This document shows, piece by piece, positions 119-15,146 of a stretch of DNA of 15,158 nucleotides (its first letter is position 1; each line of letters starts with the position of its first letter). Under the pieces are notes generated by a model. The model was given only the letters and a program-made list of their open reading frames with translations, made no database searches and was not told where the DNA came from. A program made the position numbers and the translations under genes. Location of the stretch: positions 1 to 15,158 of the forward strand of contig JBLWVX010000047.1 in NCBI GenBank assembly GCA_048268245.1. Reading direction: 5' to 3'. The stretch comes from Arcobacteraceae bacterium. GTDB lineage: Bacteria > Campylobacterota > Campylobacteria > Campylobacterales > Arcobacteraceae.

Positions 119-3067
119 ATGAAAATAAAAAATATTATTATTTCATCACTTTTAACATCATCAACTCTTTTATCACAAACTTATGATGCAACTGGCATTA
201 CTTCTCAGGGTGACCTTTTCTACAAAATTCTACAAGGTTTAAAACCCAGCGATTACAATACAATTGTTTTCAAAGGATCAGGGGATTTTGAAGTTTTTGA
301 GAATATTCAAGGTGGTGTTCCTCCATACTCTGGTACACTTGGTGTTGATTCACTATTTCAAAATATTCGTTTTGAAGGTAGCAGTAAGAGTGATACCTTC
401 TTTTTTAATGGTGGTCGTTCAAGTCCTTGTACCACTATAAATTGTATACCTTATAAATTTAGTGTGAGTACCCACAGCTTAACAATTGATAACATTGCAT
501 GGTCTTTAGCACCAGATCAAGCATATGGCGATTACATTGAGGATTTTATTATTAATAATAGGGGTGCTACGCCAGGAGAGATTAATCTCAATAATGGGCA
601 ATTGAAGCTCGACCAAGGCTTTGGTTCAAATGCTCAGCTTTATTTTGGTGGTGCCACTGTTTTTAATATTACAGGTATTGATAATAAGATTATTGCACCT
701 GGTGGTGCTATTAACCGTAGCATTTATGATACAAAAATGCATTTGCATGCAGGAAGTAAACTTGAGGTAAGCGGTACAACAGAGCTTAATATGCGAGATT
801 ATGGCTATTTACAAATGGATGCAGGCAGTGAACTTGAGATTATTGATTCAAAAGTTGTGATGACCAAACAAGCAACAGCTTCAACAAATACTAGTGTAAT
901 TGATAGTGCTAGCATAGGTATTTCAGGTTTGTTCGGTAGCACCCCAAGTTCATTGGTATTATCAAACCCTACTATTAAAAATAGTTCCATAACACTTGGA
1001 CAAAATACACGTTTTGCCTCATCAACTAAATCTAATGGAGTACTTCAACCAGCAAACTTTTACTTTGAAGGTGATAACAAGATTACATTGGCATTAGGCT
1101 CTGCACTTGCTGGTTTCTCTGGGGAAAACACTGATGAAATCACATCATTTAATTTCAAAAATGGCCGAACGGATATCATTGGTAGTGGTGCATCATCAAG
1201 GCTTTTTGCACAAACTATCCATATGGATAATGCACATTTATACCATGAAAATGTTGGTATTCAGAATGATTTGAAATATCTAAGTTTGAGTAATGGTTCT
1301 AGATTAAGTCATAATGAAAATAATGGTGAAAGTTTGGAAAACCTAAGTCTTTTAAGCGTTGTTAATTCAACAATAGAAAGTGACTATAGCATTGGTATTT
1401 CTGCAATTACTAAAGCCACTTTTAATAACGCTACGATTAAGCAAACTGATAGTCGACTAACTCGTCCAACATCTTTTTACCTAAATGGAGTTGATATTAA
1501 TGCAGACACTAAAGCTACAGTAACATTTGCAGGCAATAGTGTATTTGAAAGCCGTATTGACCCAGCAGGTAAGGATATTGGGATACCTGTTGGTCTTACT
1601 ACTGGGTTTTTAACATATGCCGATGCTTTGTACTTTACGAGACAAGGTAATTTTACTGATGAGGCTAGTAGTGTAAACGGCTTGAGTAATTTAACCGTAG
1701 AGCTTAAGCCTTTTGCAACAGGTTTACTTGCTCAAGATTATTCAAATGGTGGTGAAAATAGCGATGGTATTTATGATATTTTGATTTTCAATCAAGGTGG
1801 TACTGCCACTACCAATGCTACAGCTGATAGCGATACAGTAGCTGTACGTATGAGTGGAGATATGCCAGCACTTTTAAAAGCTACACAAGTTAAAACACCA
1901 AGTGCTGATAATCAAGTTTCAGTAAAACTTGAGACACAAGCACTTTCATCATTAATTTCACATTCTACTATTACAACTCCGAATCAGCAAAATGGATTAA
2001 ATCTATTAATAAATAGTGCAAATTCTGGAAATACAAATGTAAATAATGCATTAAATACTGTAACAAACTCTCAACTTCAAACACACACAAATACTGTTCA
2101 TGCAGAACCATACTCATCATATATGACAGTTTCATTAGAGCATACAGATATGATAATGAATAATGTTTTAAGTAATACTGCATTAACAAGAAATCTAAAT
2201 AGTGGAAATTTGGAAAGAAAAAAGAACTTTTGGATTGATATAAGCCATTCAAAAGGTGATATTGATGGAAGTTCAGGCTTAGGAAGCTTTGATTATACTT
2301 TAAATACTATAACTCTTGGAAATGATTTTATTGTAAAGGATAATAAGCGTGCTGGTCTATTTGTTTCATTTGGAACACAAAAAATGGATGAACACGATAC
2401 AGTTACTCAAGATTTTAACAGTGATAATTACTATGTTGGTGGATATTTAAATCAAAATACTGTAAATGATTGGATTTTAGGAAGTGTATTTGGGTATGGA
2501 TATGGAAAACATAAATCAAATAGAGTTGTAAAGCTAGCAAATTTAAATGAAAATATTAAAGGTAAGTTTGATAGTCATAGTATTTATGGAGCGATTAATA
2601 TCTCAAAGACTATGTTTACAAATGATTGGATCTCTTTAAGACCTGAAATTGGCTTAGACTATACATATTACCAGCAGGAAAAAATAAAAGAATCAGGAGA
2701 TACAAACTTTAATCTTACTATTGATAAAGCTAATGCACAAGCAATAGTTGCAAGTATCGGATTAAATGCAAAATTTAAAAGTATTTCAGATACTAATAAT
2801 ATCTATCCTCTTGCTTTTATCAAATATGAACATGATTTTTATGCAAATAAAAACAATACTCATAAAATAGATGCGGCATTAAGTTCAAATTCAAATTATA
2901 AACAAGAGTTTGAAGGTCAAAATAGAGGAGAGAACTCATTATTAACTGGTATTGGCTTAGCTAGTGATATAAGTAATGCTTTACAAATAAATGGAGGTTT
3001 GGTTTATAGTAAACATTCTCATGGAAAAGAAATTGGTGCTGGAGTAAGTTTAAAATATCAATTTTAA
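119..3067 (+). CDS. Autotransporter (type Va) outer-membrane protein: signal peptide, putative beta-helical passenger, C-terminal beta-barrel
   Basis: 982-aa ORF with RBS AAGGA at about 104-108 and Sec signal MKIKNIIISSLLTSSTLLS. The passenger is G/N/S/T-rich. A linker helix (HAEPYSSYMTVSLEH) precedes about 280 aa of amphipathic beta-strands starting at NFWID, ending in the BAM-type motif GVSLKYQF. Confidence 0.9.
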   Translation: MKIKNIIISSLLTSSTLLSQTYDATGITSQGDLFYKILQGLKPSDYNTIVFKGSGDFEVFENIQGGVPPYSGTLGVDSLFQNIRFEGSSKSDTFFFNGGRSSPCTTINCIPYKFSVSTHSLTIDNIAWSLAPDQAYGDYIEDFIINNRGATPGEINLNNGQLKLDQGFGSNAQLYFGGATVFNITGIDNKIIAPGGAINRSIYDTKMHLHAGSKLEVSGTTELNMRDYGYLQMDAGSELEIIDSKVVMTKQATASTNTSVIDSASIGISGLFGSTPSSLVLSNPTIKNSSITLGQNTRFASSTKSNGVLQPANFYFEGDNKITLALGSALAGFSGENTDEITSFNFKNGRTDIIGSGASSRLFAQTIHMDNAHLYHENVGIQNDLKYLSLSNGSRLSHNENNGESLENLSLLSVVNSTIESDYSIGISAITKATFNNATIKQTDSRLTRPTSFYLNGVDINADTKATVTFAGNSVFESRIDPAGKDIGIPVGLTTGFLTYADALYFTRQGNFTDEASSVNGLSNLTVELKPFATGLLAQDYSNGGENSDGIYDILIFNQGGTATTNATADSDTVAVRMSGDMPALLKATQVKTPSADNQVSVKLETQALSSLISHSTITTPNQQNGLNLLINSANSGNTNVNNALNTVTNSQLQTHTNTVHAEPYSSYMTVSLEHTDMIMNNVLSNTALTRNLNSGNLERKKNFWIDISHSKGDIDGSSGLGSFDYTLNTITLGNDFIVKDNKRAGLFVSFGTQKMDEHDTVTQDFNSDNYYVGGYLNQNTVNDWILGSVFGYGYGKHKSNRVVKLANLNENIKGKFDSHSIYGAINISKTMFTNDWISLRPEIGLDYTYYQQEKIKESGDTNFNLTIDKANAQAIVASIGLNAKFKSISDTNNIYPLAFIKYEHDFYANKNNTHKIDAALSSNSNYKQEFEGQNRGENSLLTGIGLASDISNALQINGGLVYSKHSHGKEIGAGVSLKYQF

Positions 3068-3165
3068 ACTTATTTCAGAAAAAATATTTAGATACTGAAA
3101 ATTAAGTGATAGTTTAATCGATATGATTGAGTATGTTAATGATGTTGAATTCAATATAGTATAGC

Positions 3166-3405
3166 TTATTTAACACACTCTTTTATACTTTTTAAGATAG
3201 AGTTTATATATTTATTTATCTCTTCATTTTTTTATGTTTTCTCAATTTTGTAGTTGATTCTTGGAAGCTGTTTTTGCTTGTTCATATTATAATCAAGAAA
3301 AATTGAGATTCTAACTCCATAGTTTTAGTAATCATCGTTTATATTTGATTTGTTATTATCATCATAACCAAGCTGAGAAAATAGTGAGACTTTTGGAAAA
3401 TATTT
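3166..3405 (-). pseudogene. Degraded internal fragment resembling a TolC-family outer-membrane protein
   Basis: Manual translation: KYFPKVSLFSQLGYDDNNKSNINDDY*NYGVRISIFLDYNMNKQKQLPRINYKIEKT*KNEEINKYINSILKSIKECVK*. It shows a TolC-like PxVxL strand, loop, GxxxSxPL-like strand and helix pattern, with in-frame TAA at 3325-3327 and 3232-3234. Confidence 0.5.
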
Positions 3406-3526
3406 TTTCATCTGAATTTATAGAGAAATTATTTTTTCCTTCAATATATCCAGCTACAAACTCTACATAATTGTCGTTAGCAAAGATAGAGTTTGCTAAA
3501 AATGCTGATAATAAAAGTTTTTTCAT
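3362..3526 (-). pseudogene. Truncated 54-aa N-terminus of an exported, probably outer-membrane protein (not in ORF track)
   Basis: MKKLLLSAFLANSIFA-NDNYVEFVAGYIEGKNNFSINSDEKIFSKSLTIFSAWL*. A clear Sec signal peptide is followed by one beta-strand-like segment and an early stop. There is no good RBS upstream. Confidence 0.5.
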
Positions 3527-3585
3527 TTTTATATAAAAGAAATATATTTTAATTTCTTGTGGAAATAGTGTCTTTAATAAAAATA

Positions 3586-4227
3586 TTATAATCTTTTATC
3601 CATTTTTATAATTTCTTTAATTTCCTTTTCTATTAAATCTATATCATCAGTTGCTTTGATAATATGTATATCTTCTTTACTAATCATATTATTTGCATAA
3701 AGTGACTTTTCAATAAATTTTAGTAAGTACTCCCAATAATCATATCCAACTAGGTATATTTTAAAACCTTTTGGCATTTTACCTGTTTGTGTAAGAGTTA
3801 AAACTTCAAACATTTCATCTAGTGTACCAAACCCACCAGGAAATACAACACAAGCTTTTGAGTATTTTACTAACATATATTTTCTTGAGAAAAAATAGTT
3901 AAATGTAAGATTTTTAGTTGTATATTTATTGAGTGACTTTTCAAAAGGAAGATAAATACTTAATCCTATAGATTGGGCACCTTTTGCATCATAAGCACCT
4001 TTGTTAGCTGCTTGCATAATACCATCACCACCACCTGTAATAACATTTATTCCATTTTTACTTAAATTAAATGCTAAATCATAAGCTAGTTTTGCATACT
4101 TATCATTTTCATTTGTTCTTGCACTACCAAAAATAGTTACATTATTTTTAAAATCTTTTAGTAACGCTTTTCCATTTGTGAAATCATCATTTATCTTTTT
4201 TTTATATACTGTATCCGGACTTAACAT
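3586..4227 (-). CDS. LOG-family nucleotide phosphoribohydrolase (TIGR00730 Rossmann-fold protein)
   Basis: Motifs VTIFGSAR, ITGGGDGIMQAANKGA, FFSRKYML and PGGFGTLDE. RBS AAGGAGG at 4233-4239 (minus strand). Confidence 0.92.
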   Translation of the reverse strand: MLSPDTVYKKKINDDFTNGKALLKDFKNNVTIFGSARTNENDKYAKLAYDLAFNLSKNGINVITGGGDGIMQAANKGAYDAKGAQSIGLSIYLPFEKSLNKYTTKNLTFNYFFSRKYMLVKYSKACVVFPGGFGTLDEMFEVLTLTQTGKMPKGFKIYLVGYDYWEYLLKFIEKSLYANNMISKEDIHIIKATDDIDLIEKEIKEIIKMDKRL

Positions 4228-4263
4228 AATGTCCTCCTTTATAAAAAAATATTATTTATATAG

Positions 4264-4269
4264 ATTATA
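4264..4269 (-). promoter_or_regulatory. Candidate sigma70 -10 element (TATAAT) for the LOG gene
   Basis: Perfect TATAAT on the minus strand about 36 bp upstream of the ATG. The AT-rich background limits certainty. Confidence 0.45.
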
Positions 4270-4285
4270 TGCCAATTTTGATTAA

Positions 4286-4321
4286 AAAACTCACTATTAT
4301 CTCACTTAGTTTTGCTACACT
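4286..4321 (+). promoter_or_regulatory. Direct-repeat regulator box 1 plus extended -10 for the sensor kinase
   Basis: aaaaCTCACTattatCTCACTt with half-sites at 4290 and 4301, then TGcTACACT (hexamer 4316-4321). Confidence 0.75.
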
Positions 4322-4347
4322 AGCACTTTAGATTAGGAGAGTTTATC

Positions 4348-5880
4348 TTGTTTAGTGAAAAAAATATTCCCAAACTTATTATTTTAACACCTATTATTAC
4401 AGTAGTAATGATTGCTTTTTTTACAATCTATTTTTTTATTAAAAATCAAAACAACTATTTTGAAACACAAAGTATTGAAGTTGAAAAAGCTTATATCAAT
4501 AAGCAAAAAAATATTTTGAAAAAAGAAGTAGATTACATCATAAATTATATTGAACACCATGTAAAAAGAAATAACAAATTAAATGAAGAAGAATTAAAAA
4601 AAGAACTTCTAAAATATATAGAGACTATTAGATATGAAAAACATGGTTATATTTGGGTACATGATACTAATTACTATTTAAGAGCTCATCCTTTTAGACA
4701 AAAAAATATTGATACATATGATATTGATTTAAAAGATGCTATGGGGACTTATATTACAAAAGAGTTTATTGATAAAACTATTAAGAATCCAGATGGAATT
4801 TTTATAGAGTATTATTGGCAAAAACCTAAAAATGTTCACTTTTCAAAAAAACTTGGTTTTTTTAGATTGTATGAAAAATACAATTGGGTAATTGGAGCAG
4901 GACTTTATATTGATGATATTCAAAATTCAATTCATGAAAATAAAAAGATTTTAGAAGAGAAAATTAATAAGCATATTAGACTTGTTGTAACTATTTCTTT
5001 CTTAGTTATTTTAGTAATAGGACTTTTGTCTTTTATCATGTCAAAAAAAATCACACAGGTTTTTAAAGCTTATCAAGATAGTGTGAAGAAAAAAGAGCTT
5101 TTATTAGAAGATTTAAATAGAAATTTAGAACTAAAAGTTCAAAAAGCAATTACAGAAGTAAAGAAAAAAGATAGAGCCATGCTTCACCAGTCAAGACTAG
5201 CTAGAATGGGAACAATGCTTAGTATGATTGCTCATCAATGGAGACAACCTTTAAGTGAAGTTTCTGGAATTTTAATGGAGCTAGAAACTGCTAATAAGTT
5301 TAATAAAGTTAATTCAAATATGATAAAAGATAGTGTAGATGAATCAAATAAACAAATTCAGTTTATGTCAAATACTATCGAAGATTTTAGAAACTTTTTT
5401 AAACCTGATAAAAAGAAGATTGATTTCTATATTGATAATGCTTGTAGTGAAGCGGTTACTTTAGTTTATGCTTCTTTAAAAAACTTCAATATCAAATTAA
5501 ATAAAAATGTAAAGTATAACTGCTTTATACATGGTTATGAAAGAGAGTTTGCTCAAGTTATGTTAAATCTTATTTCAAATGCAAAAGATGTATTAATTCA
5601 AAGAGATATTAAAAATCCTAAAATTGATATAACTTTAGATAGAAAATTTAATAATGCAATTATAAAAGTACAGGACAATGCAGGTGGAGTAGAAGATGAG
5701 TATATGGACTTGATTTTTGAGCCATATTTTACTACAAAAAGTAGTTCAAAGGGAACTGGACTTGGACTTTATATGGCTAAGATGATTATTGAAAAAAATA
5801 TGCAAGGAGAGTTATTCGTAGAAAATAAAAAAGAAGGAGCTTGTTTTTTTATTGTTTTACCAACTGAACAAAAAGTTTAA
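4348..5880 (+). CDS. Membrane sensor histidine kinase with periplasmic single Cache (sCache_2-like) domain
   Basis: TTG start after RBS AGGAG. Two TM helices flank a Cache region (RYEKHGYIWV..AHP..LKDAMG..EYYWQKP..KKLGF..NWVIGAGLYIDDI). H-box IAHQWRQPL, N-box NLISNAKD, G1 DNAGG, F-box IFEPYFTTK, G2 GTGLGLY. Confidence 0.95.
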   Translation: MFSEKNIPKLIILTPIITVVMIAFFTIYFFIKNQNNYFETQSIEVEKAYINKQKNILKKEVDYIINYIEHHVKRNNKLNEEELKKELLKYIETIRYEKHGYIWVHDTNYYLRAHPFRQKNIDTYDIDLKDAMGTYITKEFIDKTIKNPDGIFIEYYWQKPKNVHFSKKLGFFRLYEKYNWVIGAGLYIDDIQNSIHENKKILEEKINKHIRLVVTISFLVILVIGLLSFIMSKKITQVFKAYQDSVKKKELLLEDLNRNLELKVQKAITEVKKKDRAMLHQSRLARMGTMLSMIAHQWRQPLSEVSGILMELETANKFNKVNSNMIKDSVDESNKQIQFMSNTIEDFRNFFKPDKKKIDFYIDNACSEAVTLVYASLKNFNIKLNKNVKYNCFIHGYEREFAQVMLNLISNAKDVLIQRDIKNPKIDITLDRKFNNAIIKVQDNAGGVEDEYMDLIFEPYFTTKSSSKGTGLGLYMAKMIIEKNMQGELFVENKKEGACFFIVLPTEQKV

Positions 5881-5882
5881 AA

Positions 5883-5915
5883 TGATACTTATTTGATACT
5901 ATTTTTTTGTATATT
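5883..5915 (+). promoter_or_regulatory. Variant direct-repeat box (TGATACT-N4-TGATACT) plus -10-like TATATT for the HD-GYP gene
   Basis: TGATACT at 5883 and 5894 (11-bp period), TATATT at 5910-5915. The geometry matches the CTCACT boxes. Confidence 0.55.
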
Positions 5916-5951
5916 TATTAAACACAATTTTATACAAGAAGGTATTTTATT

Positions 5952-6905
5952 ATGAATCAAAAAGAGTTTGTTTTTTCTGCACCTATTGAAATCTTGGATA
6001 TAAAACAGGGTTTTGACTATCCAATTTATGCAAAATGTGATAATAGACGCTTTAAGGTTTTAGTAGAAAAAAATTCATTTTATAGTAAAAAAGAGTGTAG
6101 CTTCTACAAGAATAACCAATTAAAAAAAGTATTTATAAATGTAAAAGATAAAATAAAATATCAAAATGATGTACAAAAGTATATAACAAATATAGTTGAT
6201 AATGATGATATCTCAGCAAAGGTAAAAGCAATTTTAATAAATGACCTTGTAAAAGATACAATTCAAAATCTTTTTGAAGCAGCAGATATTTCAAAAGAGA
6301 TGTTAAAAAATGTTGATACTCTTTTATTAAGTAGTATAGATTTTATTTTAAAAGATGAACTTGCTATTAAATCAATGTTAAAAGTTATCTCATATGATTA
6401 TTATACTTCTACTCATTGTATTGATGTAGCAACTTATGCATTAGCTTTTGGAGCATATTTAAAGCTTGAAAAAAAAGAATTAGAACTTTTGGGAAAGGCT
6501 GCTCTTTTACATGATTTAGGTAAGAGAAAGATTGATAAAAACATCATAGGTAAAAATGGAAAATTAACTACAGAAGAGTTTGAAAAAGTAAAAGAACATC
6601 CTACTTTTTCAGTTAAAATTCTAAAAAAATATGGAGAAACAAATCAAAGGTTATTGGATATCATAGAACAACATCATGAGAAGTGTGATGGTACAGGTTA
6701 TCCAAGAGGTTTAAAAAGCAATGAAATTGATGATTTTGCTAAAATAATAGCAATATGCGATATATTTCATGCATTAACAACAAGGCGAAGTTACAAAGAT
6801 AGTTTTGATAAACATAAAGCTTTCATGATTATGTACGAAAAAATGAGAGGTGAAATTTGTGAAGACTATCTAAGAGCATTTCTACAGTTCTTAAAAGTAA
6901 CATAG
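5952..6905 (+). CDS. HD-GYP domain cyclic-dinucleotide phosphodiesterase
   Basis: Motifs DYYTSTH, LLHDLGK, KEHP, HHEKCDGTGYPRGL and CDIFHALTTRRSYK. RBS AAGG at 5939-5942. Confidence 0.9.
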   Translation: MNQKEFVFSAPIEILDIKQGFDYPIYAKCDNRRFKVLVEKNSFYSKKECSFYKNNQLKKVFINVKDKIKYQNDVQKYITNIVDNDDISAKVKAILINDLVKDTIQNLFEAADISKEMLKNVDTLLLSSIDFILKDELAIKSMLKVISYDYYTSTHCIDVATYALAFGAYLKLEKKELELLGKAALLHDLGKRKIDKNIIGKNGKLTTEEFEKVKEHPTFSVKILKKYGETNQRLLDIIEQHHEKCDGTGYPRGLKSNEIDDFAKIIAICDIFHALTTRRSYKDSFDKHKAFMIMYEKMRGEICEDYLRAFLQFLKVT

Positions 6906-6953
6906 TGTAAAATAGCCTTGTTTAGAAATTAGATTATTTAAATAAGGTTTTTG

Positions 6954-7634
6954 ATGGAAGAGTTAATAAAACAATTTCAAAATTATACAGTTTTATGTGT
7001 AGAAGATGAAGATGGAATTAGAAAAAGATTAGTAAATACTTTAAAGTACTATTTTAAAGAAGTTTACGAAGCAAATAATGGTGAAGATGGTTTTGATTTA
7101 TACCAAGAGTATAAGCCATCTCTTATTATTAGTGATATTGAAATGCCTAATCAAAATGGTATTTCTATGATAGAGCAGATAAGACAAAAAGATTTAGATA
7201 CTATTGTTATTATGATTACTGCTTATTCAAATGAAGAGTACCTTTTAGAACTTATAAATTTAAATATTAATCAATACATCTTAAAACCTGTAAATTCAGA
7301 CTCTTTATTAAGTGGTATAATAAAAGCTTTTGGAAATAGACTAAATGAAGAAATAGAGTTTTGTGATGGTTTATATTTTGATAAAACACAAATGGAGCTT
7401 TTTTATAAAAATGAACTTGTATCTTTGCGAAAACGAGATAAAGAGTTTTTATTACTTCTACACAGGAATAGGAACGGTGTGGTTACTTATGACTTAATTG
7501 AAGAGTATTTATGGAGAGATAAGTCAATGAGTCTATCTGCACTAAAAACCTTCATCAAGGAGTTCCGCCAAAGAATACCTGTTGATATTATCACAAATGT
7601 GCCACAAATTGGTTACAAACTTTTAAATCAATAA
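6954..7634 (+). CDS. OmpR/PhoB-type response regulator (receiver plus winged helix)
   Basis: Receiver motifs VEDE, IISDIEMP, ITAYS and YILKP. The C-terminal wHTH ends IITNVPQIGYKL. ATG at 6954 is preferred over TTG at 6951 (AAGG at 6944-6947). Confidence 0.93.
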   Translation: MEELIKQFQNYTVLCVEDEDGIRKRLVNTLKYYFKEVYEANNGEDGFDLYQEYKPSLIISDIEMPNQNGISMIEQIRQKDLDTIVIMITAYSNEEYLLELINLNINQYILKPVNSDSLLSGIIKAFGNRLNEEIEFCDGLYFDKTQMELFYKNELVSLRKRDKEFLLLLHRNRNGVVTYDLIEEYLWRDKSMSLSALKTFIKEFRQRIPVDIITNVPQIGYKLLNQ

Positions 7635-7670
7635 AAAACTCACTATAAACTCACTTGATTGTTTTATGAT
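7635..7670 (+). promoter_or_regulatory. Direct-repeat regulator box 2 plus -10 for dctPQM
   Basis: aaaaCTCACTataaaCTCACTt with half-sites at 7639 and 7650, then TATGAT at 7665-7670. Confidence 0.78.
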
Positions 7671-7698
7671 TTCCTTATAAAAAATAAGGAGAAACAAA

Positions 7699-8655
7699 AT
7701 GATTAAGAAAAGTTTACTAATAGCTTCACTTGCATCTTTAGCTTTAGCTGGAAATGTAAAGATGGATTTAAATGCTAAATATGGAGCAAATAACTTCCAC
7801 ACAAAAGGTGCTGTACAGTTTGCTAATCTTGTAAAAGATTATTCAAAAGGAAGTGTAAGTATTACAGTTCATCCTGGAAGTGCATTAATTAAAGGAAACC
7901 CTTTAAAAGCTGTAAAAGATGCAACTGTTGCAATGACTGATATGTTTATTCCATTTACATCAGGTGGGGGAAAAGTATTTGGTGTTTCAGCTTTACCTTT
8001 TATTGCTAACTCATACGAAGATGCTTATAAATTATACCAATTATCAAAACCTGCATATGAAAAAACTGCAAGAAAATGGAACCAAAAGTTACTTTACTCT
8101 GTAACATGGCCAGCTTCTGGGTTCTACTCAAAAGATTCAATTTCATCAATCAATGATTTTAAAGGTATTAAAACTAGAACTTATGATAAAAACTCAGCTG
8201 CGTTCATTAATCTTTCAGGTGGAAATGCGGTAGCACTTCCTTGGGGAGAAGTTTATTCAGCTTTAAGAACTGGTATGGTTGATTCTGTTGTAACATCTTC
8301 ATCATCAGGAAAAGATGGTAAGTTTTGGGAAGTTTTAAATAACTATACAAAAATTAATTATGCTTACCCACTTCAAGCAGTTACAATTAACTTAGATTAC
8401 TGGAACTCTTTAGATAAAGCACAACAAAAAGCTGTTTTAAAAGCTGCAAAACAAATCGAAGAGTCTCAATGGAAAGCTGTTAAAGTTGAAGAAAAAGAAG
8501 CACTTGAGACTTTAGCTAAAAATGGAATGAAAATAGCAGATACAAGTCCTAAGTTAAAAGCTGAGTTAGACAAAATCGCAGATAAGTTATTAGAAGAGTA
8601 CTTAGAAGGTGCAAACTCTGATATTAAGAAAATATTTAAAGAATATAGAAAGTAA
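7699..8655 (+). CDS. dctP: TRAP transporter substrate-binding protein, DctP6/7-like (probable pyroglutamate binder)
   Basis: Signal peptide ending ALA. Motifs NNFHT, LPFIANSYEDA, LLYSVTWP, DFKGIKTR (conserved carboxylate-binding Arg), EVYSALRTGMVD and GKDGKFWE. RBS AAGGAG. Confidence 0.92.
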   Translation: MIKKSLLIASLASLALAGNVKMDLNAKYGANNFHTKGAVQFANLVKDYSKGSVSITVHPGSALIKGNPLKAVKDATVAMTDMFIPFTSGGGKVFGVSALPFIANSYEDAYKLYQLSKPAYEKTARKWNQKLLYSVTWPASGFYSKDSISSINDFKGIKTRTYDKNSAAFINLSGGNAVALPWGEVYSALRTGMVDSVVTSSSSGKDGKFWEVLNNYTKINYAYPLQAVTINLDYWNSLDKAQQKAVLKAAKQIEESQWKAVKVEEKEALETLAKNGMKIADTSPKLKAELDKIADKLLEEYLEGANSDIKKIFKEYRK

Positions 8656-8660
8656 TAGTT

Positions 8661-9146
8661 ATGAACTATATTTCAAACTTTATAGATAAGCTTACCAAAA
8701 CGGGAGCTTATCTTGCAGGCTTTTTATTAGTATCTTTGGTTTTATTAATTTTAACAGAGATTTTTTTAAGATCTTTTTTTGATATTTCTACGATGATAGC
8801 AGATGAGTATAGTGGATATTTATATTTAGCTTCTATATTTTTAAGTTTAGGCTATGCTTTTTCAAAAGATGCACATATTAGAATTAACATAATTACTTCA
8901 AGATTATCAAAAAAGACAAACAAAAAGATTGATATTGTTGCAGCAATTATTACTTTGGGTGTTTTAGCTTTTGCTTTATATAGAACAATTCTTTTTACTT
9001 ATGATTCTTATGATTTAGAGATGTTATCAGAAAATGTATCTGAAACACCACTTTATATAACTCAACTTGCAATGCCAATAGGAATTACTGTTTTTATATT
9101 AGCAGTTGTATTATTTATATTCAAAGGATTCTCAAATGATAGCTGA
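8661..9146 (+). CDS. dctQ: TRAP transporter small permease
   Basis: 161 aa with four hydrophobic segments, motifs ADEYSGYL and HIRINII, located between dctP and dctM. Confidence 0.92.
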   Translation: MNYISNFIDKLTKTGAYLAGFLLVSLVLLILTEIFLRSFFDISTMIADEYSGYLYLASIFLSLGYAFSKDAHIRINIITSRLSKKTNKKIDIVAAIITLGVLAFALYRTILFTYDSYDLEMLSENVSETPLYITQLAMPIGITVFILAVVLFIFKGFSNDS

Positions 9147-10470
9147 TCCACTAATTTTAGCAGTAATTTTAATCACTGTAATGTTTGTTTTTTTATTGTC
9201 ATCTTTATGGATTGGTGTATCATTAATGCTTACAGGTATTATTGGAATGCTAATTTATGATCATAATTTACCTCCTGTAATTAGTATTTATGATAAGGTA
9301 GGAGATTTACTTGCTTCATCTTTATATGATGCAATGAATTCATGGTCGCTAGCAGCACTTCCTATGTTTATTTTGATGGGTGAAATTTTATATAAATCTT
9401 CTATTTCAGCAAAACTTTTAAATGGACTTAGACCTTGGCTTTCACATATTCCAGGGGGACTTTTACATGTAAATGTAGCTGCCTGTTCACTTTTTGCAGC
9501 AGTTTCAGGTTCAAGTACAGCAACAACAGCAACAGTTGGAAAAATAACACTTGATGAACTTCAAAAAAGAGGTTATTCAAAACAATTAGCGATGGGTTCT
9601 CTTGCTGGTTCTGGTACTTTGGGATATTTAATACCTCCTTCATTGATTATGATTATTTATGGGGTAATGGCTGATGTATCTATTGGTAAACTATTTTTAG
9701 CAGGATTACTTCCTGGGCTTTTAATGGCTTCTTTATACTCATTTTATATTATGTATAAAGCAAAAGTAGACCCAAGTGTTTTACCTGCAAATGAAGAGAA
9801 GTATACTTGGAGTGATAAACTATATTCATTAAAAGATTTAGCTCCAATTTTTTTACTGATTTCATTAGTTCTTGGTTCTATTTATGGAGGTTATGCAACA
9901 CCAACAGAAGCTGCTGCTTTAGGTGTATTAGGAAGTTTGATTTTAGCTGCTTATTTTAAAGCTGTATCTTTAGAGATTTTAAAAAATGCTTTATTAAATA
10001 GTGTCAGAACATCTGTAATGATTGGATTTATTATTGCTGGTGCTGTATTTTTATCTCAAGTAATAGGATTTCTAGGAATAGCAAGAGCTATGAGTGAGTT
10101 TATTACAGGACTTGGATTAACTCCAATGAAGCTTATTTTAATAATTGGTATTATGTATATAATTTTAGGAATGATATTAGAAGCTATTTCTATTGTTGTT
10201 ATGACTTTGCCTATTGTTTTACCTATTGTTGTATTAGCAGGTTTTGATCCTTTATGGTTTGGAGTATTCTTAGTATTTATGGTTGAAATGGCACAAATTA
10301 CACCTCCTGTAGGTTTCTCATTGTTTGTAATTCAAAGTATAAGTAATGAAAAAATACAAACAATTTTAAAAGCCACATTCCCATTTTTTATTCTGATGAT
10401 TGTAACGGTAGTAATTATTACTGTTTTCCCTGAAATAGTATTTTTCTTACCAGATCAAATGATTAAATAG
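9136..10470 (+). CDS. dctM: TRAP transporter large permease
   Basis: Motifs ALPMFILMGE, FAAVSGSS, GTLGYLIPPS, TPTEAAA and QITPPVG. The likely start is ATG 9136 (RBS AAGGA at 9124-9128), overlapping the dctQ end, rather than 9106. Confidence 0.95.
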   Translation: MIADPLILAVILITVMFVFLLSSLWIGVSLMLTGIIGMLIYDHNLPPVISIYDKVGDLLASSLYDAMNSWSLAALPMFILMGEILYKSSISAKLLNGLRPWLSHIPGGLLHVNVAACSLFAAVSGSSTATTATVGKITLDELQKRGYSKQLAMGSLAGSGTLGYLIPPSLIMIIYGVMADVSIGKLFLAGLLPGLLMASLYSFYIMYKAKVDPSVLPANEEKYTWSDKLYSLKDLAPIFLLISLVLGSIYGGYATPTEAAALGVLGSLILAAYFKAVSLEILKNALLNSVRTSVMIGFIIAGAVFLSQVIGFLGIARAMSEFITGLGLTPMKLILIIGIMYIILGMILEAISIVVMTLPIVLPIVVLAGFDPLWFGVFLVFMVEMAQITPPVGFSLFVIQSISNEKIQTILKATFPFFILMIVTVVIITVFPEIVFFLPDQMIK

Positions 10471-10474
10471 TTAC

Positions 10475-10506
10475 AAAAAAGAAGTAGTTTTTCTACTTCT
10501 TTTTTT
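10475..10506 (+). terminator. Rho-independent terminator after dctM (potentially bidirectional)
   Basis: AAAAAAGAAGTAG-TTTTT-CTACTTCTTTTTT: a perfect 13-bp inverted repeat with flanking A and T runs. Confidence 0.85.
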
Positions 10507-10514
10507 ATTTGTAT

Positions 10515-10550
10515 AAAACTCACTTTTTCCCTACTTGGAGTTGCTAGTAT
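10515..10550 (+). promoter_or_regulatory. Direct-repeat regulator box 3 (degenerate second half-site) plus extended -10
   Basis: aaaaCTCACTttttcCCTACTt with half-sites at 10519 and 10530, then TGcTAGTAT (hexamer 10545-10550). Confidence 0.65.
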
Positions 10551-10573
10551 TAAAAAAACTTTAGGTGGAAAAC

Positions 10574-10774
10574 ATGCTTGAATTATTATATGTATTTGTA
10601 TGTGTGATGATATATCTTATCTCTTTTATATATAGAAGAGTGTCAATACTTGCTAGTTTAGTGGTTTTATATACAGCTTACGTTTTAGAGGTTAGTTTAC
10701 CTTTTGCTCTTGGTGTTTTAGTCGTTTTAACCTTAATAAGACTTAAAAAAACAGGAGTTAGGGAAGAACTTTAA
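10574..10774 (+). CDS. Small hydrophobic membrane protein of unknown function (66 aa)
   Basis: ATG 10574 follows RBS AGGTGG at 10563-10568; the track's GTG start at 10565 lies within that RBS. Two to three hydrophobic segments and a charged tail RLKKTGVREEL. Confidence 0.7.
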   Translation: MLELLYVFVCVMIYLISFIYRRVSILASLVVLYTAYVLEVSLPFALGVLVVLTLIRLKKTGVREEL

Positions 10775-10794
10775 AAAATTATATGTTTAATATA

Positions 10795-10803
10795 TGGTAG
10801 AAT
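10795..10803 (+). promoter_or_regulatory. Extended -10 promoter (TGgTAGAAT) immediately upstream of pxpA
   Basis: TGn plus TAGAAT (5/6 match to TATAAT), 27 bp upstream of ATG 10830. Confidence 0.5.
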
Positions 10804-10829
10804 AAGGAATATCAATGCAAGGTAATGAA

Positions 10830-11567
10830 ATGGCAACTATTAGATTAAACTGTGATATGGGTGAGAGCTTTGGTATTTGGAAGATGGGATTAGATGAGCA
10901 AGTTATGCCTTATATAGATATGGCAAACTTAGCTTGTGGATTCCATGCAAGTGATGCTGTAACGATGAATAAATCAGTAGCTCTTGCAAAGCAAAACAAT
11001 GTAACAATAGGAGCTCATCCTGCATATCAAGATTTAGTAGGATTTGGAAGAAGAACAATGCAGTGTTCTTTAGAAGAAATTAAGTCAATAGTTTTATATC
11101 AATTAGGTGCTTTAAGTGCCTTTTGTAAAGCACATAAAACAGCAATATCTTATGTGAAACCACATGGAGCTTTATACAATGACATGATGAGAGATGAAAA
11201 TATTTATAAAGCAATTGTAAGTGCAATAGCTTCTTTTGACAAAAATATAAAAATTATGATTTTGTCAGGTCCTAAAAATGAGGCATATAAACATACAGCA
11301 CTTTTATATGGAATAAATGTAATTTATGAAGTATTTGCAGATAGAAACTACAATGATGATGGAACATTAGTTTCAAGAACAAGAGAAAATGCTGTTATTC
11401 ATGATGAATTAGATGTTGCCCAAAGAATTGCTACATTAAAAAATTATGGATATTTATATAGTGTAAGTGGACAAAAACTTTTTATGGCTGTTGATACTAT
11501 TTGTGTTCATGGGGATAATGAAAATGCTTTAGAGTTTATAAAGCTACTTAAAAAGGCGATGACCTAA
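10830..11567 (+). CDS. pxpA: 5-oxoprolinase subunit A (LamB/YcsF family)
   Basis: Motifs LNCDMGES, ACGFHA, GAHP, VKPHGALYN, FADRNY and TICVHGD. The start is ATG 10830 (AAGG at 10819-10822) or alternatively 10815. Confidence 0.95.
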   Translation: MATIRLNCDMGESFGIWKMGLDEQVMPYIDMANLACGFHASDAVTMNKSVALAKQNNVTIGAHPAYQDLVGFGRRTMQCSLEEIKSIVLYQLGALSAFCKAHKTAISYVKPHGALYNDMMRDENIYKAIVSAIASFDKNIKIMILSGPKNEAYKHTALLYGINVIYEVFADRNYNDDGTLVSRTRENAVIHDELDVAQRIATLKNYGYLYSVSGQKLFMAVDTICVHGDNENALEFIKLLKKAMT

Positions 11568-12241
11568 TGCAATTTAAAGTAGCATCTGTAGATTCATTGA
11601 TTATTTATTTTGGTGATGAAATAGCTCAAGATGTAGCACTAAAAGTAAAAAAAGCTTATCAAGGTTTAAAGATTTTAAATCTTGATGGCTTAATAGAAAT
11701 AATTCCTTCATATACTTCAATTTTTATAAGTTATGATATTTTCAAATATGATTATGAAAGTTTAGTAAAACTTTTAAAACAAGAAATAAATCTTGATTCA
11801 AAAGTAGAGTTTGAAGAAAAAATTGTAACTATTGATACTTATTATGACCCAGAAGTTGGTCTTGATTTAAAAGATATGTCTTTTAAAACAAATCTTAGTA
11901 TTGATGATATTATAGGAATTCATTCTAATAAACTTTATGATGTATATGCAATTGGATTTTTACCAGGTTTTGCATATTTAGCAAGTGTAGATAATGCTAT
12001 AGCAATGCCAAGATTAAGTAGTCCAAGAAAACAAATACCAAAAGGTTCTGTAAGTATTGCAGATACTCAAACAGCAGTTTATCCGTCAGCAAGTCCTGGT
12101 GGATGGAATATTATAGGTAGAACAGCATTAGAGCTATTTGATAGAAGTTTAGATACCTTATCTCCTTTAAGTGTAGGAGATAAAGTAAAGTTTAATCCTA
12201 TTAGTAAAAAAGAGTTTTTAGCCCAAGGAGGAGTTTTATGA
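11567..12241 (+). CDS. pxpB: 5-oxoprolinase subunit B (KipI / allophanate hydrolase subunit 1 family)
   Basis: Motifs EIIPSYTS, IGFLPGFAYL, PRKQIPKGSV and YPSASPGGWNIIGRT. TAATG overlap with pxpA. Confidence 0.95.
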   Translation: MQFKVASVDSLIIYFGDEIAQDVALKVKKAYQGLKILNLDGLIEIIPSYTSIFISYDIFKYDYESLVKLLKQEINLDSKVEFEEKIVTIDTYYDPEVGLDLKDMSFKTNLSIDDIIGIHSNKLYDVYAIGFLPGFAYLASVDNAIAMPRLSSPRKQIPKGSVSIADTQTAVYPSASPGGWNIIGRTALELFDRSLDTLSPLSVGDKVKFNPISKKEFLAQGGVL

Positions 12242-13149
12242 GTTTAGAAATAATCAACTCTCCTATTTTTGCAACCATTCAAGATAAAGGAAGATTTGGC
12301 TTCAACTCAATTGGAGTTACAAATTCAGGAGTTATGGATGAGTATGCTTATTTAATAGCAAATAAACTTCTTCAAAATAGTGAAGATGAAAATATAATTG
12401 AAATAGCTTTTTCAAATGTAGAGTTTAAAGCATTAAAAGATATAAAAATAGCCCTTACTGGTGCAACATGTGAGTTTTTTATAAACACAAATCCTTTTGC
12501 TATTTGGCAAACTTACAATATCAAAGCAGGTGATATTATAAAAGTAGGAAAAATACAAGAGGGTGCTAGAGTTTATCTTGGTGTTAAAGGTGGTTTTGAC
12601 ATTAAAAAAGAGTTTGGTAGTAATTCAACGACACTAAAAGAAAAACTTGGTGGAATAAATGCTGACAGATTACAAAAAGGTCAAATTCTAGAGTCTAAAA
12701 AAAGTAATGAATTTTATAATATAAGATTAAAAGATAAGTTTATTCCAAAATATGAAGATACTTTAGAGTTAAGAGTAATATTATCTTATCAAGATGAATT
12801 TTTTCCTAAAGAAGAAATAGATAAGTTTTTCTCTTCAATTTACACAGTATCTAATGAGTTTAATAGAATGGGATGTAAGCTTCAAGGTGAGGCTGTTTCT
12901 AGTAGTATTGATGGTATTATTTCTGAGGGAATTGGATTTGGTTCAATTCAAATACCAAGTGATGGTCAGCCAATTATTCTACTTAAAGATAGACAAACAA
13001 TTGGTGGTTATCCTAAAATTGGCTCACTTTTAAGTATAGATTGTTTTAAGTTAGCTCAAGCAAAACCAAAGACAAAAATAAAATTTAAGCCTATATCAAT
13101 TACTCAAGGCCAAGACTTAGTAAAGAAGTTTTATACCTCTTTACGATAA
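12238..13149 (+). CDS. pxpC: 5-oxoprolinase subunit C (KipA / allophanate hydrolase subunit 2 family)
   Basis: Motifs TIQDKGR, GARVYLGVKGG, NRMGCKL and GSIQIPSDGQPIILLKDRQTIGGYPKIG. ATGA overlap with pxpB. Confidence 0.95.
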   Translation: MSLEIINSPIFATIQDKGRFGFNSIGVTNSGVMDEYAYLIANKLLQNSEDENIIEIAFSNVEFKALKDIKIALTGATCEFFINTNPFAIWQTYNIKAGDIIKVGKIQEGARVYLGVKGGFDIKKEFGSNSTTLKEKLGGINADRLQKGQILESKKSNEFYNIRLKDKFIPKYEDTLELRVILSYQDEFFPKEEIDKFFSSIYTVSNEFNRMGCKLQGEAVSSSIDGIISEGIGFGSIQIPSDGQPIILLKDRQTIGGYPKIGSLLSIDCFKLAQAKPKTKIKFKPISITQGQDLVKKFYTSLR

Positions 13150-13926
13150 AAGAGCTTCAAAAAGCTCTTTTGAGTCAGTCCCTTTTTCATAAGTTTTAAT
13201 TTTAAATTCAAAGTTAGCTTTTAAAATAATTCCTGATTTACTTTTTAAAGTACTGTTTGATAAAAGTCTTTTTATATTATTGATTAGACTTTTTGCATCT
13301 TTTTGTGTTTTATCACCAAAAAGAACAAAGAATTTATTGTTTAAGAATCTTACTATTTCAAATTCACATTTATCATCATTTAGATGTTTTTTTAAGAAGT
13401 TACATATAAAAATAAGTAGATTATTAGATATCACATCTCCATACTCTTTTTGTATATAGTCATAATCAACAAGGTCAATCATAGAGATGATACCATTTTT
13501 TGTAAAATAAGCATTTTTATCTAAAACTTGATTATATAACCATTTTCTATTATAAGAGCTTGTTAAATCATCTAAAAAAATCTTTTTATTTAAGTTTTCT
13601 ATTTCTTTTTCTAAATTATCCATATGTTTATATATTTGAGTTAATGCATCAGTATCTTTATCTTCTATGGCTTTTTTTGTGTCTTTTGCAACTCTTTTAA
13701 GCTCTTTTGCATTATTTGCCACTATATCCATATAGTTTTCAATGCTATTAAAATCTTCAATAATTAGTTCATTTATCTCTTTCTTAAACTTTTCATCATT
13801 AAAATCTATTTCTAAAGTTTTTGCATTTTTATTAAATTTTTCAAAATAAACTGATGGCATGATTATTTCATTATTTAATAGTTCGTTTATAGTAAGATTT
13901 GTAATCTTTCTAAGCTCTTTTTTCAT
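13141..13926 (-). CDS. Coiled-coil plus degenerate GGDEF-domain protein
   Basis: A coiled coil leads into DDLTSSYNRK (the DxLT..NR hallmark) and MIDLVDYDYIQKEYG. The active-site loop reads RFLNNKF instead of RxGGDEF. Confidence 0.8.
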   Translation of the reverse strand: MKKELRKITNLTINELLNNEIIMPSVYFEKFNKNAKTLEIDFNDEKFKKEINELIIEDFNSIENYMDIVANNAKELKRVAKDTKKAIEDKDTDALTQIYKHMDNLEKEIENLNKKIFLDDLTSSYNRKWLYNQVLDKNAYFTKNGIISMIDLVDYDYIQKEYGDVISNNLLIFICNFLKKHLNDDKCEFEIVRFLNNKFFVLFGDKTQKDAKSLINNIKRLLSNSTLKSKSGIILKANFEFKIKTYEKGTDSKELFEALLS

Positions 13927-15146
13927 TTATTTTCTCCGATTATTTTCTCAATTGGCTGAGGTTTACCTATATAGTAACCTTGTGAGTAGTCAATTCCAAC
14001 AGCATTTACATACCTTAATATTTTTAAATCACTTACAAATTCTGCAACTATTTTTATATTTTGTTGTTTACAAAAATGAACAATGCTTTTAATCAGATTT
14101 AAGTAAATATCTTCATTAATCTTTTTTATTAACGAACCATCTATTTTAATATAGTCTACATTTAGATTTAAGATATATTCATAATTTGAAAAACCAGTTC
14201 CAAAGTCATCAATAGCTATTTGAACTCCATATTTTTTTACTTTTGCAATAAATTCATTTACGATATTATAGTTTGAAATTTTTTCACTTTCTAAAATTTC
14301 AATTGTAAGATACTCACCAATATGATTTGTATTTATTTTGCCAATAATAGATTTTTGAACATATGGGTTTAAAATATCAGTATAGTCAAGGTTTATACTG
14401 ATATGAATTTTGTATTTTATAATATATTCAACAACCTTATCTATTAAAAGTTCCATAAGTTTGTGATATAGTCTGGCTTTTTTAGCTTTTTGGATAAAAA
14501 CAAAAGGAGATAAAACATTTCCTTCTTTGTCAAAGACTCTCATTAAAGCTTCATATTTGTAAAGCTCTTCAGTATCTGAGTCAACAATTGCTTGTAAATA
14601 TGGTTCAACAAGTTTGTTTTCTATATTGTAAGTTAGAAGCTCTATAATATTTTCACTACCATGATCATTTTCATAAAGTTTTGCATCATAATATGTAAAA
14701 TGAATATTGTTTATTTTTGCATTATATAAAGCTTTTTCAGCATAAACTCTTAAATATGTATCTTTTGATTTAGAACATCCAATCGTAATATCAATATTAA
14801 TTGGTGTTTCATTTGTTTTTAAATTGAAATTATGATTAATTACTTTTTTAAATATAAGTTTTCTTATATCTGAGATTTCTTCTTGACTTAGATTATCATA
14901 TACAGTCAAAGAAAAAACATCTGCATGTAAATTTTTAAGTTCTGTATGAATATTTCTTTTAAGGGATTTTATTATTAATTTTATTATTTTGTTTTTTAAA
15001 AGGTTTTTTAATTGATTGATTATAAAATCACCATTTTTAAATCCATAGATTGCATTAATATCTTTCATATAAAGGATATCAATTAAAAATAGAGTTTTTA
15101 CATCTTTTTTATGTAATTGTTTGTATATATAACCATTTAAAAACAA
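13923..15146 (-). CDS. EAL-domain c-di-GMP phosphodiesterase with N-terminal degenerate GGDEF domain
   Basis: TTG start with AAGGT at 15152-15156. The degenerate GGDEF has INAIYGFKNGD and loop LHADVF. EAL motifs are intact: YEALMR, ISINL, EILESE, IDDFGTGFS, IKIDGS, AEFV and QGY. Confidence 0.9.
   Translation of the reverse strand: MFLNGYIYKQLHKKDVKTLFLIDILYMKDINAIYGFKNGDFIINQLKNLLKNKIIKLIIKSLKRNIHTELKNLHADVFSLTVYDNLSQEEISDIRKLIFKKVINHNFNLKTNETPINIDITIGCSKSKDTYLRVYAEKALYNAKINNIHFTYYDAKLYENDHGSENIIELLTYNIENKLVEPYLQAIVDSDTEELYKYEALMRVFDKEGNVLSPFVFIQKAKKARLYHKLMELLIDKVVEYIIKYKIHISINLDYTDILNPYVQKSIIGKINTNHIGEYLTIEILESEKISNYNIVNEFIAKVKKYGVQIAIDDFGTGFSNYEYILNLNVDYIKIDGSLIKKINEDIYLNLIKSIVHFCKQQNIKIVAEFVSDLKILRYVNAVGIDYSQGYYIGKPQPIEKIIGENK

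Follow-up and report, generated by a model that had tools for sequence, protein, structure and literature searches.

A Cache-domain two-component system, a TRAP transporter and pxpABC form a candidate regulon for the use of external 5-oxoproline in Arcobacteraceae

According to the accessible text of a 2026 paper, the regulation of bacterial 5-oxoproline (pyroglutamate) metabolism had not been studied before PxpR was described (PMC13274462). In the Corynebacterium glutamicum PxpR-pxpTABC system, as set out there, external 5-oxoproline is taken up by an APC-type secondary carrier and hydrolyzed to glutamate by PxpABC; the genes for the carrier and the enzyme are transcribed or regulated together, and the repressor PxpR, a cytoplasmic protein of the GntR type, binds 5-oxoproline with a dissociation constant (KD) of 726 nM (PMC13274462). 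Here we describe a cluster that would likewise be dedicated to uptake and hydrolysis but is laid out differently, in a 15,158-nucleotide stretch of an Arcobacteraceae genome (contig JBLWVX010000047.1); this whole stretch is called the window below. Using Pfam and NCBIfam scans and the translations, we found all of the genes of the system on the plus strand between positions 4287 and 13149, in the order sCache_2 histidine kinase, HD-GYP gene, OmpR-type response regulator, dctP, dctQ, dctM, small membrane open reading frame (ORF), pxpA, pxpB and pxpC. The preliminary description of this DNA had placed the kinase, the regulator, dctPQM, the small ORF and pxpABC in the same positions and orientation, and it had overlooked the HD-GYP gene (5952 to 6905) between the kinase and regulator genes. 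Unlike the PxpR system, this locus would read the periplasm, through a membrane-bound Cache kinase and its OmpR-type partner; its importer is a binding-protein-dependent system of the TRAP (tripartite ATP-independent periplasmic) type, and its promoter geometry suggests activation.

Other described systems resemble the locus in single parts. DctP6 and DctP7 of Bordetella pertussis (PDB entries 2PFZ and 2PFY) and a receptor from a marine metagenome (6WGM) are DctP-type TRAP receptors like the one encoded here, and DctP7 is reported to bind 5-oxoproline with a KD of 0.3 µM (PMC13274462). The Bordetella genes, however, are described as lying near a gene for a eukaryotic-type 5-oxoprolinase and not near pxpABC; use of 5-oxoproline was not demonstrable in that organism, and the accessible part of the same paper mentions no two-component system for these receptors (PMC13274462). 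In Pelagibacter, the high-affinity pyroglutamate-binding protein SAR11_0655 is encoded beside pxpABC homologues, an arrangement that was read as a route from external pyroglutamate to glutamate. That system is an ATP-binding cassette transporter rather than a TRAP transporter, and no dedicated sensor is described for it in the accessible text (PMC11485210). On the sensor side, the closest parallels are PscD, Adeh_3718 (4K08) and a Vibrio parahaemolyticus domain (2QHK/4EXO), which are sCache_2 domains with the same Tyr/His/Lys triad and two sandwiching Trp residues; as far as the accessible text goes, they are chemoreceptor domains for C2 and C3 acids, whereas the domain in the window feeds a histidine kinase (PMC5062169).

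The NCBIfam MctS model matched the sensor part of the kinase with an E value of 4.2e-25 and 88 bits, far under its equivalog cut-off of 700. The overall logic is nevertheless that of Rhizobium MctSR-MctP and Rhodobacter DctSR-DctPQM, in which a periplasmic sensor kinase and its regulator adjoin the carboxylate importer that they induce. The predicted signal, the OmpR type of the regulator and the coupling to pxpABC distinguish the locus from both systems. In the literature that we searched, which took in few subscription journals, neither a histidine kinase nor a two-component system for 5-oxoproline (pyroglutamate) turned up; the preliminary description was likewise not aware of one.

We are moderately confident that the locus is a self-contained regulon for the use of external 5-oxoproline. 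In this model, the periplasmic sCache_2 domain would bind a carboxylate, most likely 5-oxoproline, and the kinase would phosphorylate the OmpR-type regulator. The regulator would bind a direct repeat, CTCACT-N5-CTCACT, overlapping the −35 region of three promoters, and would activate its own operon, dctPQM and the small ORF-pxpABC unit (in most relatives, a single dctPQM-pxpABC operon). DctP would then capture 5-oxoproline and DctQM import it, after which PxpABC would open the lactam with ATP to yield glutamate.

The argument that these genes belong together beyond their adjacency starts from a shared promoter box. The pattern AAACTCACT-N5-CYYACTT, with at most one mismatch, matched the window at 4287, 7636 and 10516, each time on the plus strand, against 0.01 matches expected by shuffling. 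A scan of the whole genome (2,681,560 bases) with this 21-nucleotide pattern returned the same three matches only, and a reversed control pattern returned none. Box 1 (AAACTCACTATTATCTCACTT; 4287 to 4307), the proposed regulator site before the kinase gene, lies 58 nucleotides 5′ of the kinase start and has the hexamer TACACT 10 nucleotides to its 3′ side. Box 2 (AAACTCACTATAAACTCACTT; 7636 to 7656) lies 60 nucleotides 5′ of the dctP start codon. Box 3 (AAACTCACTTTTTCCCTACTT; 10516 to 10536) precedes the small ORF-pxpABC unit and is itself preceded by a terminator-like hairpin with a 13-bp stem and a T run (10475 to 10505), 3′ of dctM. The shared box that the preliminary description had drawn attention to is present at three sites, ahead of the genes for the kinase and DctP and ahead of the small ORF-pxpA, and its 21-nucleotide form is confined to them in the genome.

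All three boxes show one geometry, with a TAnnnT hexamer 9 to 10 nucleotides to the 3′ side. We infer that the repeat covers the −35 region, as it would at an OmpR/PhoB-type activator site, and that the regulator activates rather than represses; box 1 would imply autoregulation. The direct repeat matches the OmpR/PhoB site type, with a periodicity of about 11 bp near −35, and as a predicted site it is conserved and tracks the regulator. A scan with the sigma-70 consensus found 59 sites against 56.4 expected and was uninformative in such AT-rich DNA.

We then determined how widely the arrangement is conserved. In a family sample of 151 Arcobacteraceae genomes, a kinase orthologue (at least 62% identity) was present in 48 and a DctP orthologue in 55, and all 48 kinase-bearing genomes were among the latter. 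PxpC was found in 78 genomes, with one match in each except G125, which had two; it was present in 54 of the 55 DctP genomes and in a further 24 that lacked DctP. The genomes are related and the samples described here overlap, so that these counts do not represent independent events. The order kinase-regulator-dctP-dctQ-dctM was present in all 20 kinase loci fetched from relatives, with pxpABC following within the stretch in 19. In the remaining one (L046), another two-component pair and another TRAP system have been inserted ahead of pxpA, and pxpC lies just past the fetched stretch. The synteny check proposed in the preliminary description thus came out in its favor, the gene order being conserved across the family and beyond it.

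Seven DctP genomes had no kinase match. Two of these are contig ends (L058 and L059, where the contig stops at the regulator or the HD gene), and four belong to one genus with genomes of 1.3 to 1.5 Mb (L054 to L057), in which dctPQM is followed by pxpB only, beside tpiA and gap, without two-component genes and with the pxpC match on another contig. The seventh carries a DctP-amidase fusion: in L060 (3110 to 4693, minus strand), a 527-residue protein combines a DctP part, 62% identical to that of the window, with an AmiA-like amidase, and its gene adjoins genes for an OprD-like porin, a 7TMR-DISM kinase and the regulator of this kinase.

Because relatives without the cassette have pxpABC at the same site, we regard kinase-regulator-dctPQM as a five-gene block that is present or absent between the LOG-family gene and pxpA. 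This pattern fits the suggestion, already made in the preliminary description, that a repair pathway has been turned to scavenging; a module for uptake and control would have been joined to an enzyme with a housekeeping role. An extra copy of pxpA was found upstream of the kinase gene in 4 of the 20 relatives (L038, L044, L045 and L046). In these four, and also in L092, L093, L100, L102, L103, L105 and L107, the second pxpA, at times accompanied by the small ORF, is placed between the kinase gene and the LOG gene. The presence of pxpA on both sides of the cassette may be a trace of its insertion.

The arrangement extends beyond the family. When the sensor part alone was compared with 401 genomes of the phylum, the best matches outside the family had 44 to 52% identity, and all four loci fetched from Sulfurospirillaceae were kinase-regulator-dctPQM-pxpABC. 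We also sampled loci by DctP alone. This sampling, which partly overlaps the family sample, gave 80 loci and returned Campylobacterota only, other phyla not being reached; the genera represented were Arcobacter, Halarcobacter, Malaciobacter, Poseidonibacter, Aliarcobacter, Sulfurospirillum, Sulfurimonas, Sulfurovum and Nitratifractor. A kinase and a regulator stood directly upstream of dctP in 46 of the 58 loci with more than 3 kb of upstream sequence, and pxpABC lay downstream in 53 of the 60 with more than 5.6 kb of downstream sequence. Where both sides could be evaluated (48 loci), 37 had both, 5 had pxpABC only, 4 had the two-component genes only and 2 had neither.

The box goes with the regulator. 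Across five genomes, 9 of the 10 exact matches to CTCACT-N5-CTCACT fell in the kinase-dctPQM-pxpABC locus, and matches with one mismatch outside the locus were about as frequent as those of a control pattern. A box preceded dctP in all 21 loci inspected (exact in 14, with one mismatch in 5 and with three mismatches in 2), mostly 57 to 68 nucleotides before the ATG, and preceded the kinase gene, with at most two mismatches, in 19 of the 21. A third box was present wherever the gap between dctM and pxpA exceeds about 300 nucleotides (the window, L034, L041, L049, L052 and L045). No third box was found in gaps of 12 to 48 nucleotides, and for this reason dctPQM-pxpABC is probably a single operon in the short-gap relatives.

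In the 80 DctP-anchored loci, we searched within 250 nucleotides of dctP for the degenerate pattern CYMACY-N5-CYMACY, for which the background is 0.0026 per 250 nucleotides. It was present in 46 of the 56 loci that have the regulator immediately upstream and in 2 of the 12 that lack it. The box defines a local regulon that occurs together with the regulator, in favor of the preliminary description, which had seen the genes as linked by a shared promoter box. No box with at most one mismatch was found near pxpA in the seven cassette-less pxpABC loci of the family (L064 to L070), nor before dctP in the three longer dctP loci without two-component genes (L054, L055 and L057). Genome G026 has the cassette (L062) on one contig and pxpABC (L071) on another; even so, the box CTCACTGCTTGCACACT stands before pxpA, with TATAAT after it. 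The cassette of this genome is followed, in place of pxpABC, by a gene of the polysaccharide deacetylase family (L062, 2411 to 3193, minus strand). The co-occurrence of box and regulator, together with the box found in trans in G026, is in our view the strongest argument that pxpABC would be a member of the regulon and not merely its neighbor. We consider it very likely that the regulon defined by the box is real.

The sensor kinase (4348 to 5880) has a transmembrane helix, a periplasmic sCache_2 domain, a second transmembrane helix, the H-box AHQWRQP and a HATPase_c domain. Pfam sCache_2 (PF17200) matched residues 52 to 195 with 90 bits (cut-off, 25); the domain spans approximately residues 32 to 208, between hydrophobic stretches at about 9 to 31 and 209 to 231. 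HATPase_c scored 67 bits (cut-off, 26.4), and HisKA, at 23.4 bits, stayed under its cut-off of 26.9 with the H-box present. Among solved structures, 4K08, 5G4Y, 2QHK and 4EXO come nearest to the sensor part.

In PscD (5G4Y/5G4Z), propionate is described as contacting Tyr90, His103, Tyr143 and Lys156, as being sandwiched by Trp92 and Trp145, and as having Phe126 as the back wall of its pocket (PMC5062169, in its accessible part). In the same order, these seven residues align with Y101, H114, Y155, K168, W103, W157 and T137 of the kinase. Six of the seven contacts are kept, including the carboxylate triad Tyr90/His103/Lys156, which corresponds to Y101/H114/K168. None of the six retained residues (Y101, W103, H114, Y155, W157 and K168) varied among the 64 distinct kinases linked to dctP, and the six-residue motif was absent from four paralogous kinases of related genomes. 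Since the pocket keeps six of the seven contacts of an acetate/propionate sensor, a carboxylate as the predicted ligand of the Cache domain is well supported.

Two further positions differ from PscD. The residue equivalent to Phe126, Thr in the window kinase, is Thr in 46 of the 64 orthologues, Phe in 9, Ile in 8 and Val in 1. The position of PscD Asn94 is occupied by His105, which, like Arg117, is conserved in at least 90% of the 64 orthologues; in the Vibrio domain, the counterpart of Asn94 is described as bonding the ligand carbonyl (PMC5062169, in its accessible part). That 5-oxoproline is the ligand of this sensor seems to us slightly the more probable outcome.

Some lineages carry a different form of the kinase. 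In Malaciobacter and Sulfurospirillum (L053 at 3049 to 4935, L061, L077, L137, L140, L150 and L156), the orthologue has about 630 residues and a dCache_2 double module, the membrane-proximal half of which is homologous to the sCache domain of the window. In L053, a gene for a 761-residue chemoreceptor lies on the opposite strand between the kinase and regulator genes, and L061 has a similar kinase-regulator gap of about 2.5 kb. The L053 chemoreceptor showed no similarity to the sensor part of the kinase.

The regulator gene (6951 to 7634, with a likely start at ATG 6954) encodes a receiver domain and a winged helix. Response_reg scored 90.2 bits (cut-off, 30.2) and Trans_reg_C 27.7 bits (cut-off, 26.2), and the translation shows the acidic pocket, the acceptor D62 (in SDIEMP), T90 and K112.

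The transporter genes are adjacent and make up a complete TRAP set: dctP, for the periplasmic solute receptor (7699 to 8655; Pfam DctP, 148 bits); dctQ, for the small membrane subunit (8661 to 9146; Pfam DctQ, 77.8 bits); and dctM, for the large membrane subunit (9106 to 10470; Pfam DctM, 297 bits; TIGR00786, 362.7 bits against a cut-off of 268.45). The true start of dctM is probably slightly downstream of 9106. A phmmer search of the PDB with DctP ranked 2pfz (1.2e-47), 6wgm (2e-44) and 2pfy (8e-37) well ahead of the next best chain (4e-27). Fold comparison with a model of DctP (mean predicted local distance difference test score, 78.3) gave the same top three, with Z scores of 33.1, 32.7 and 32.2 and identities of 33%, 26% and 32%; the next TRAP receptor was close, at 31.1, and the ranking rests mainly on sequence. 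The titles of all three entries name pyroglutamic acid or pyroglutamate. The preliminary description had singled out Bordetella DctP6 and DctP7 as the proteins to compare, and DctP does group with 2PFZ and 2PFY, as well as with the pyroglutamate-specific 6WGM. A pyroglutamate-binding DctP subfamily was reportedly defined by Rucktooa et al. in 2007, and by its sequence relationships the window DctP is a predicted member. In TRAP receptors, a conserved arginine, equivalent to Arg-147 of SiaP, pairs with the ligand carboxylate (PMC4646407). DctP R160, in the motif K-T-R-T-Y, is a candidate for this residue; it aligns with an Arg of all three pyroglutamate receptors and is invariant in our DctP alignment (A1).

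The three enzyme genes are adjacent members of the LamB/YcsF, CT_C_D and CT_A_B families. PxpA (10815 to 11567; Pfam LamB/YcsF, 318 bits; NF003816, 344.5 bits, cut-off 213) and PxpB (11567 to 12241; TIGR00370, 155.5 bits, cut-off 145.55) pass the curated NCBIfam cut-offs, and PxpC (12238 to 13149) passes the domain model TIGR00724 (266.6 bits, cut-off 230.2). Pseudomonas putida is described as having a 5-oxoproline-specific PxpABC and a transcription factor reporter (preprint 10.1101/2021.12.09.472016, in its accessible part). Taken together, the receptor and the enzyme genes make it likely that 5-oxoproline is the substrate of both the transporter and the enzyme.

In L075 (11492 to 13073), nine other Sulfurospirillum-type entries and L046/L107, the interval from dctM to pxpA holds D-glutamate cyclase family genes (PF07286 and PF14336), two of them in the Sulfurospirillum-type loci. 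They hint that the cluster might also handle the D-isomer of 5-oxoproline or glutamate. Two Arcobacter-type clusters contain a protein of 566 to 572 residues with a glutamate synthase domain (PF01645), encoded in the dctM-pxpA gap of L045 (8308 to 10026) and upstream of dctP in L098 (1530 to 3230); L098 also has an extra pxpB-pxpC pair upstream.

Several observations weigh against a regulon that senses, imports and hydrolyzes 5-oxoproline. The predicted pocket is nearly identical to those of sensors for acetate, propionate, pyruvate and glycolate. The change from Phe to Thr looked at first like an enlargement of the pocket for a C5 ligand; this idea is weakened by the occurrence of Thr in just 46 of the 64 orthologues. 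PxpC scored 200 bits with the equivalog model NF045499, under its cut-off of 500, and PxpABC paralogues in P. putida are described as acting on another lactam, butyrolactam (preprint 10.1101/2021.12.09.472016, in its accessible part). Among the DctP-anchored loci, 12 of the 58 evaluable ones lack two-component genes; loci of this kind have housekeeping neighbors (alaS, ackA and dgkA), and no gene for a different regulator adjoins dctP in them. Under the degenerate pattern, 10 of the 56 regulator-linked dctP loci have no box.

A first rival explanation concerns the signal. The regulon could be as we describe it, with 5-oxoproline imported and hydrolyzed, and the kinase could respond to glutamate, to glutamine or to another small carboxylate (acetate, pyruvate, propionate, glycolate or lactate), as a proxy for amino-acid-rich surroundings. 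The six PscD contacts that are identical in the kinase favor this explanation, and the closest sensor domains of known structure have acetate, propionate or pyruvate bound. A 2025 review gives, in its accessible part, acetate, propionate, pyruvate, glycolate, acetoacetate, L-malate and citramalate as sCache ligands and names pyroglutamate for solute-binding proteins only, not for sensor domains (PMC12358799). Against it, the regulon comprises a 5-oxoproline importer, the enzyme and the system's own genes and nothing else. Tight regulons of this kind are usually induced by their substrate. The conservation of His105, at the position of PscD Asn94, and of Arg117 likewise speaks against this explanation. 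We therefore consider a different signal unlikely, though a serious candidate, and retain 5-oxoproline as the slightly favored ligand.

A second explanation is that the kinase reads the state of the transporter, either because DctP docks on its Cache domain once loaded with ligand or by way of transport flux. All 48 genomes that have the kinase also have DctP, the two genes always being side by side, and other kinases are known to sense by way of a binding protein. The invariance of the pocket residues in all 64 kinases nevertheless argues for a small-molecule site under selection, and we regard transporter-state sensing as very unlikely. Equally hard to sustain is the idea of a substrate other than 5-oxoproline, be it a related lactam or carboxylate, with a PxpABC homologue of shifted specificity: the P. 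putida butyrolactam paralogue, the PxpC score under the equivalog cut-off and the mere 26 to 33% identity of DctP to the pyroglutamate receptors are in its favor, but it is made highly improbable by the single pxpC match per sampled genome (two in G125), which means that the same copy must serve any housekeeping role, by the same pxpABC at the same site in cassette-less relatives, by the binding of pyroglutamate by all three of the nearest solved receptors, and by the D-glutamate cyclase genes within the cluster of some lineages.

Two further genes lie within the locus. The HD-GYP-type protein has 317 residues (Pfam HD_5, 96 bits) and the motif HHEKCDGTGYP, and its N-terminal 150 residues matched no family. 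Its gene was present in 2 of the 20 fetched kinase-locus relatives and is known from L035/L084, L041, L058/L094, L079 and L080; it is absent from a genome of the same genus (L034) with a 96%-identical kinase. It is probably an accessory, lineage-restricted insertion. The small hydrophobic ORF (10565 to 10774) has 69 codons, or 66 residues if translation begins at ATG 10574, which has AGGTGGA 4 nucleotides to its 5′ side, and is predicted to encode two helices. It had no Pfam or NCBIfam match. By tblastn, it was found in 6 of the 20 relatives, each time beside a copy of pxpA, and in further loci. Across several genera it is conserved at 33 to 94% identity.

Genes flanking the locus were also considered. 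Upstream lie a LOG-family gene and a 982-residue ORF (119 to 3067, plus strand) with a C-terminal autotransporter beta-domain (PF03797, 134.5 bits) and a passenger part without a family match. Downstream, on the minus strand, a degenerate GGDEF gene and a GGDEF-EAL gene (13141 to 15146) converge on pxpC. We rejected the LOG-family gene as a part of the system, since it abuts pxpA directly in the cassette-less loci L065 and L066. We likewise rejected the GGDEF and GGDEF-EAL genes, since the same pair follows pxpC in five of the seven cassette-less loci L064 to L070. This pair stands next to pxpABC in 16 of the 20 cassette loci as well and appears to be an old neighbor of pxpABC.

In its fullest form, our proposal is that the kinase is the first extracytoplasmic sensor of 5-oxoproline, with a canonical sCache_2 pocket retuned to a C5 lactam acid, and that it drives a portable five-gene cassette for sensing and import which, in many Campylobacterota, has been placed before the housekeeping pxpABC, so that metabolite repair becomes inducible scavenging of a nutrient. 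We give this combined proposal an even chance. The locus would represent a second control logic for 5-oxoproline, unlike that of PxpR, in which two-component sensing of the periplasm is joined to a defined operator and regulon. Dozens of natural variants are at hand, with or without the cassette at the same site, with sCache or dCache sensors, and with pxpABC on a separate contig. If the Cache domain does bind 5-oxoproline, a lactam acid would be added to the known ligands of sCache_2 domains, and the system would offer a compact biosensor part. For Campylobacterota that depend on amino acids, it would also mean that 5-oxoproline is a sought-after nutrient, in line with what was found for SAR11 in the ocean.

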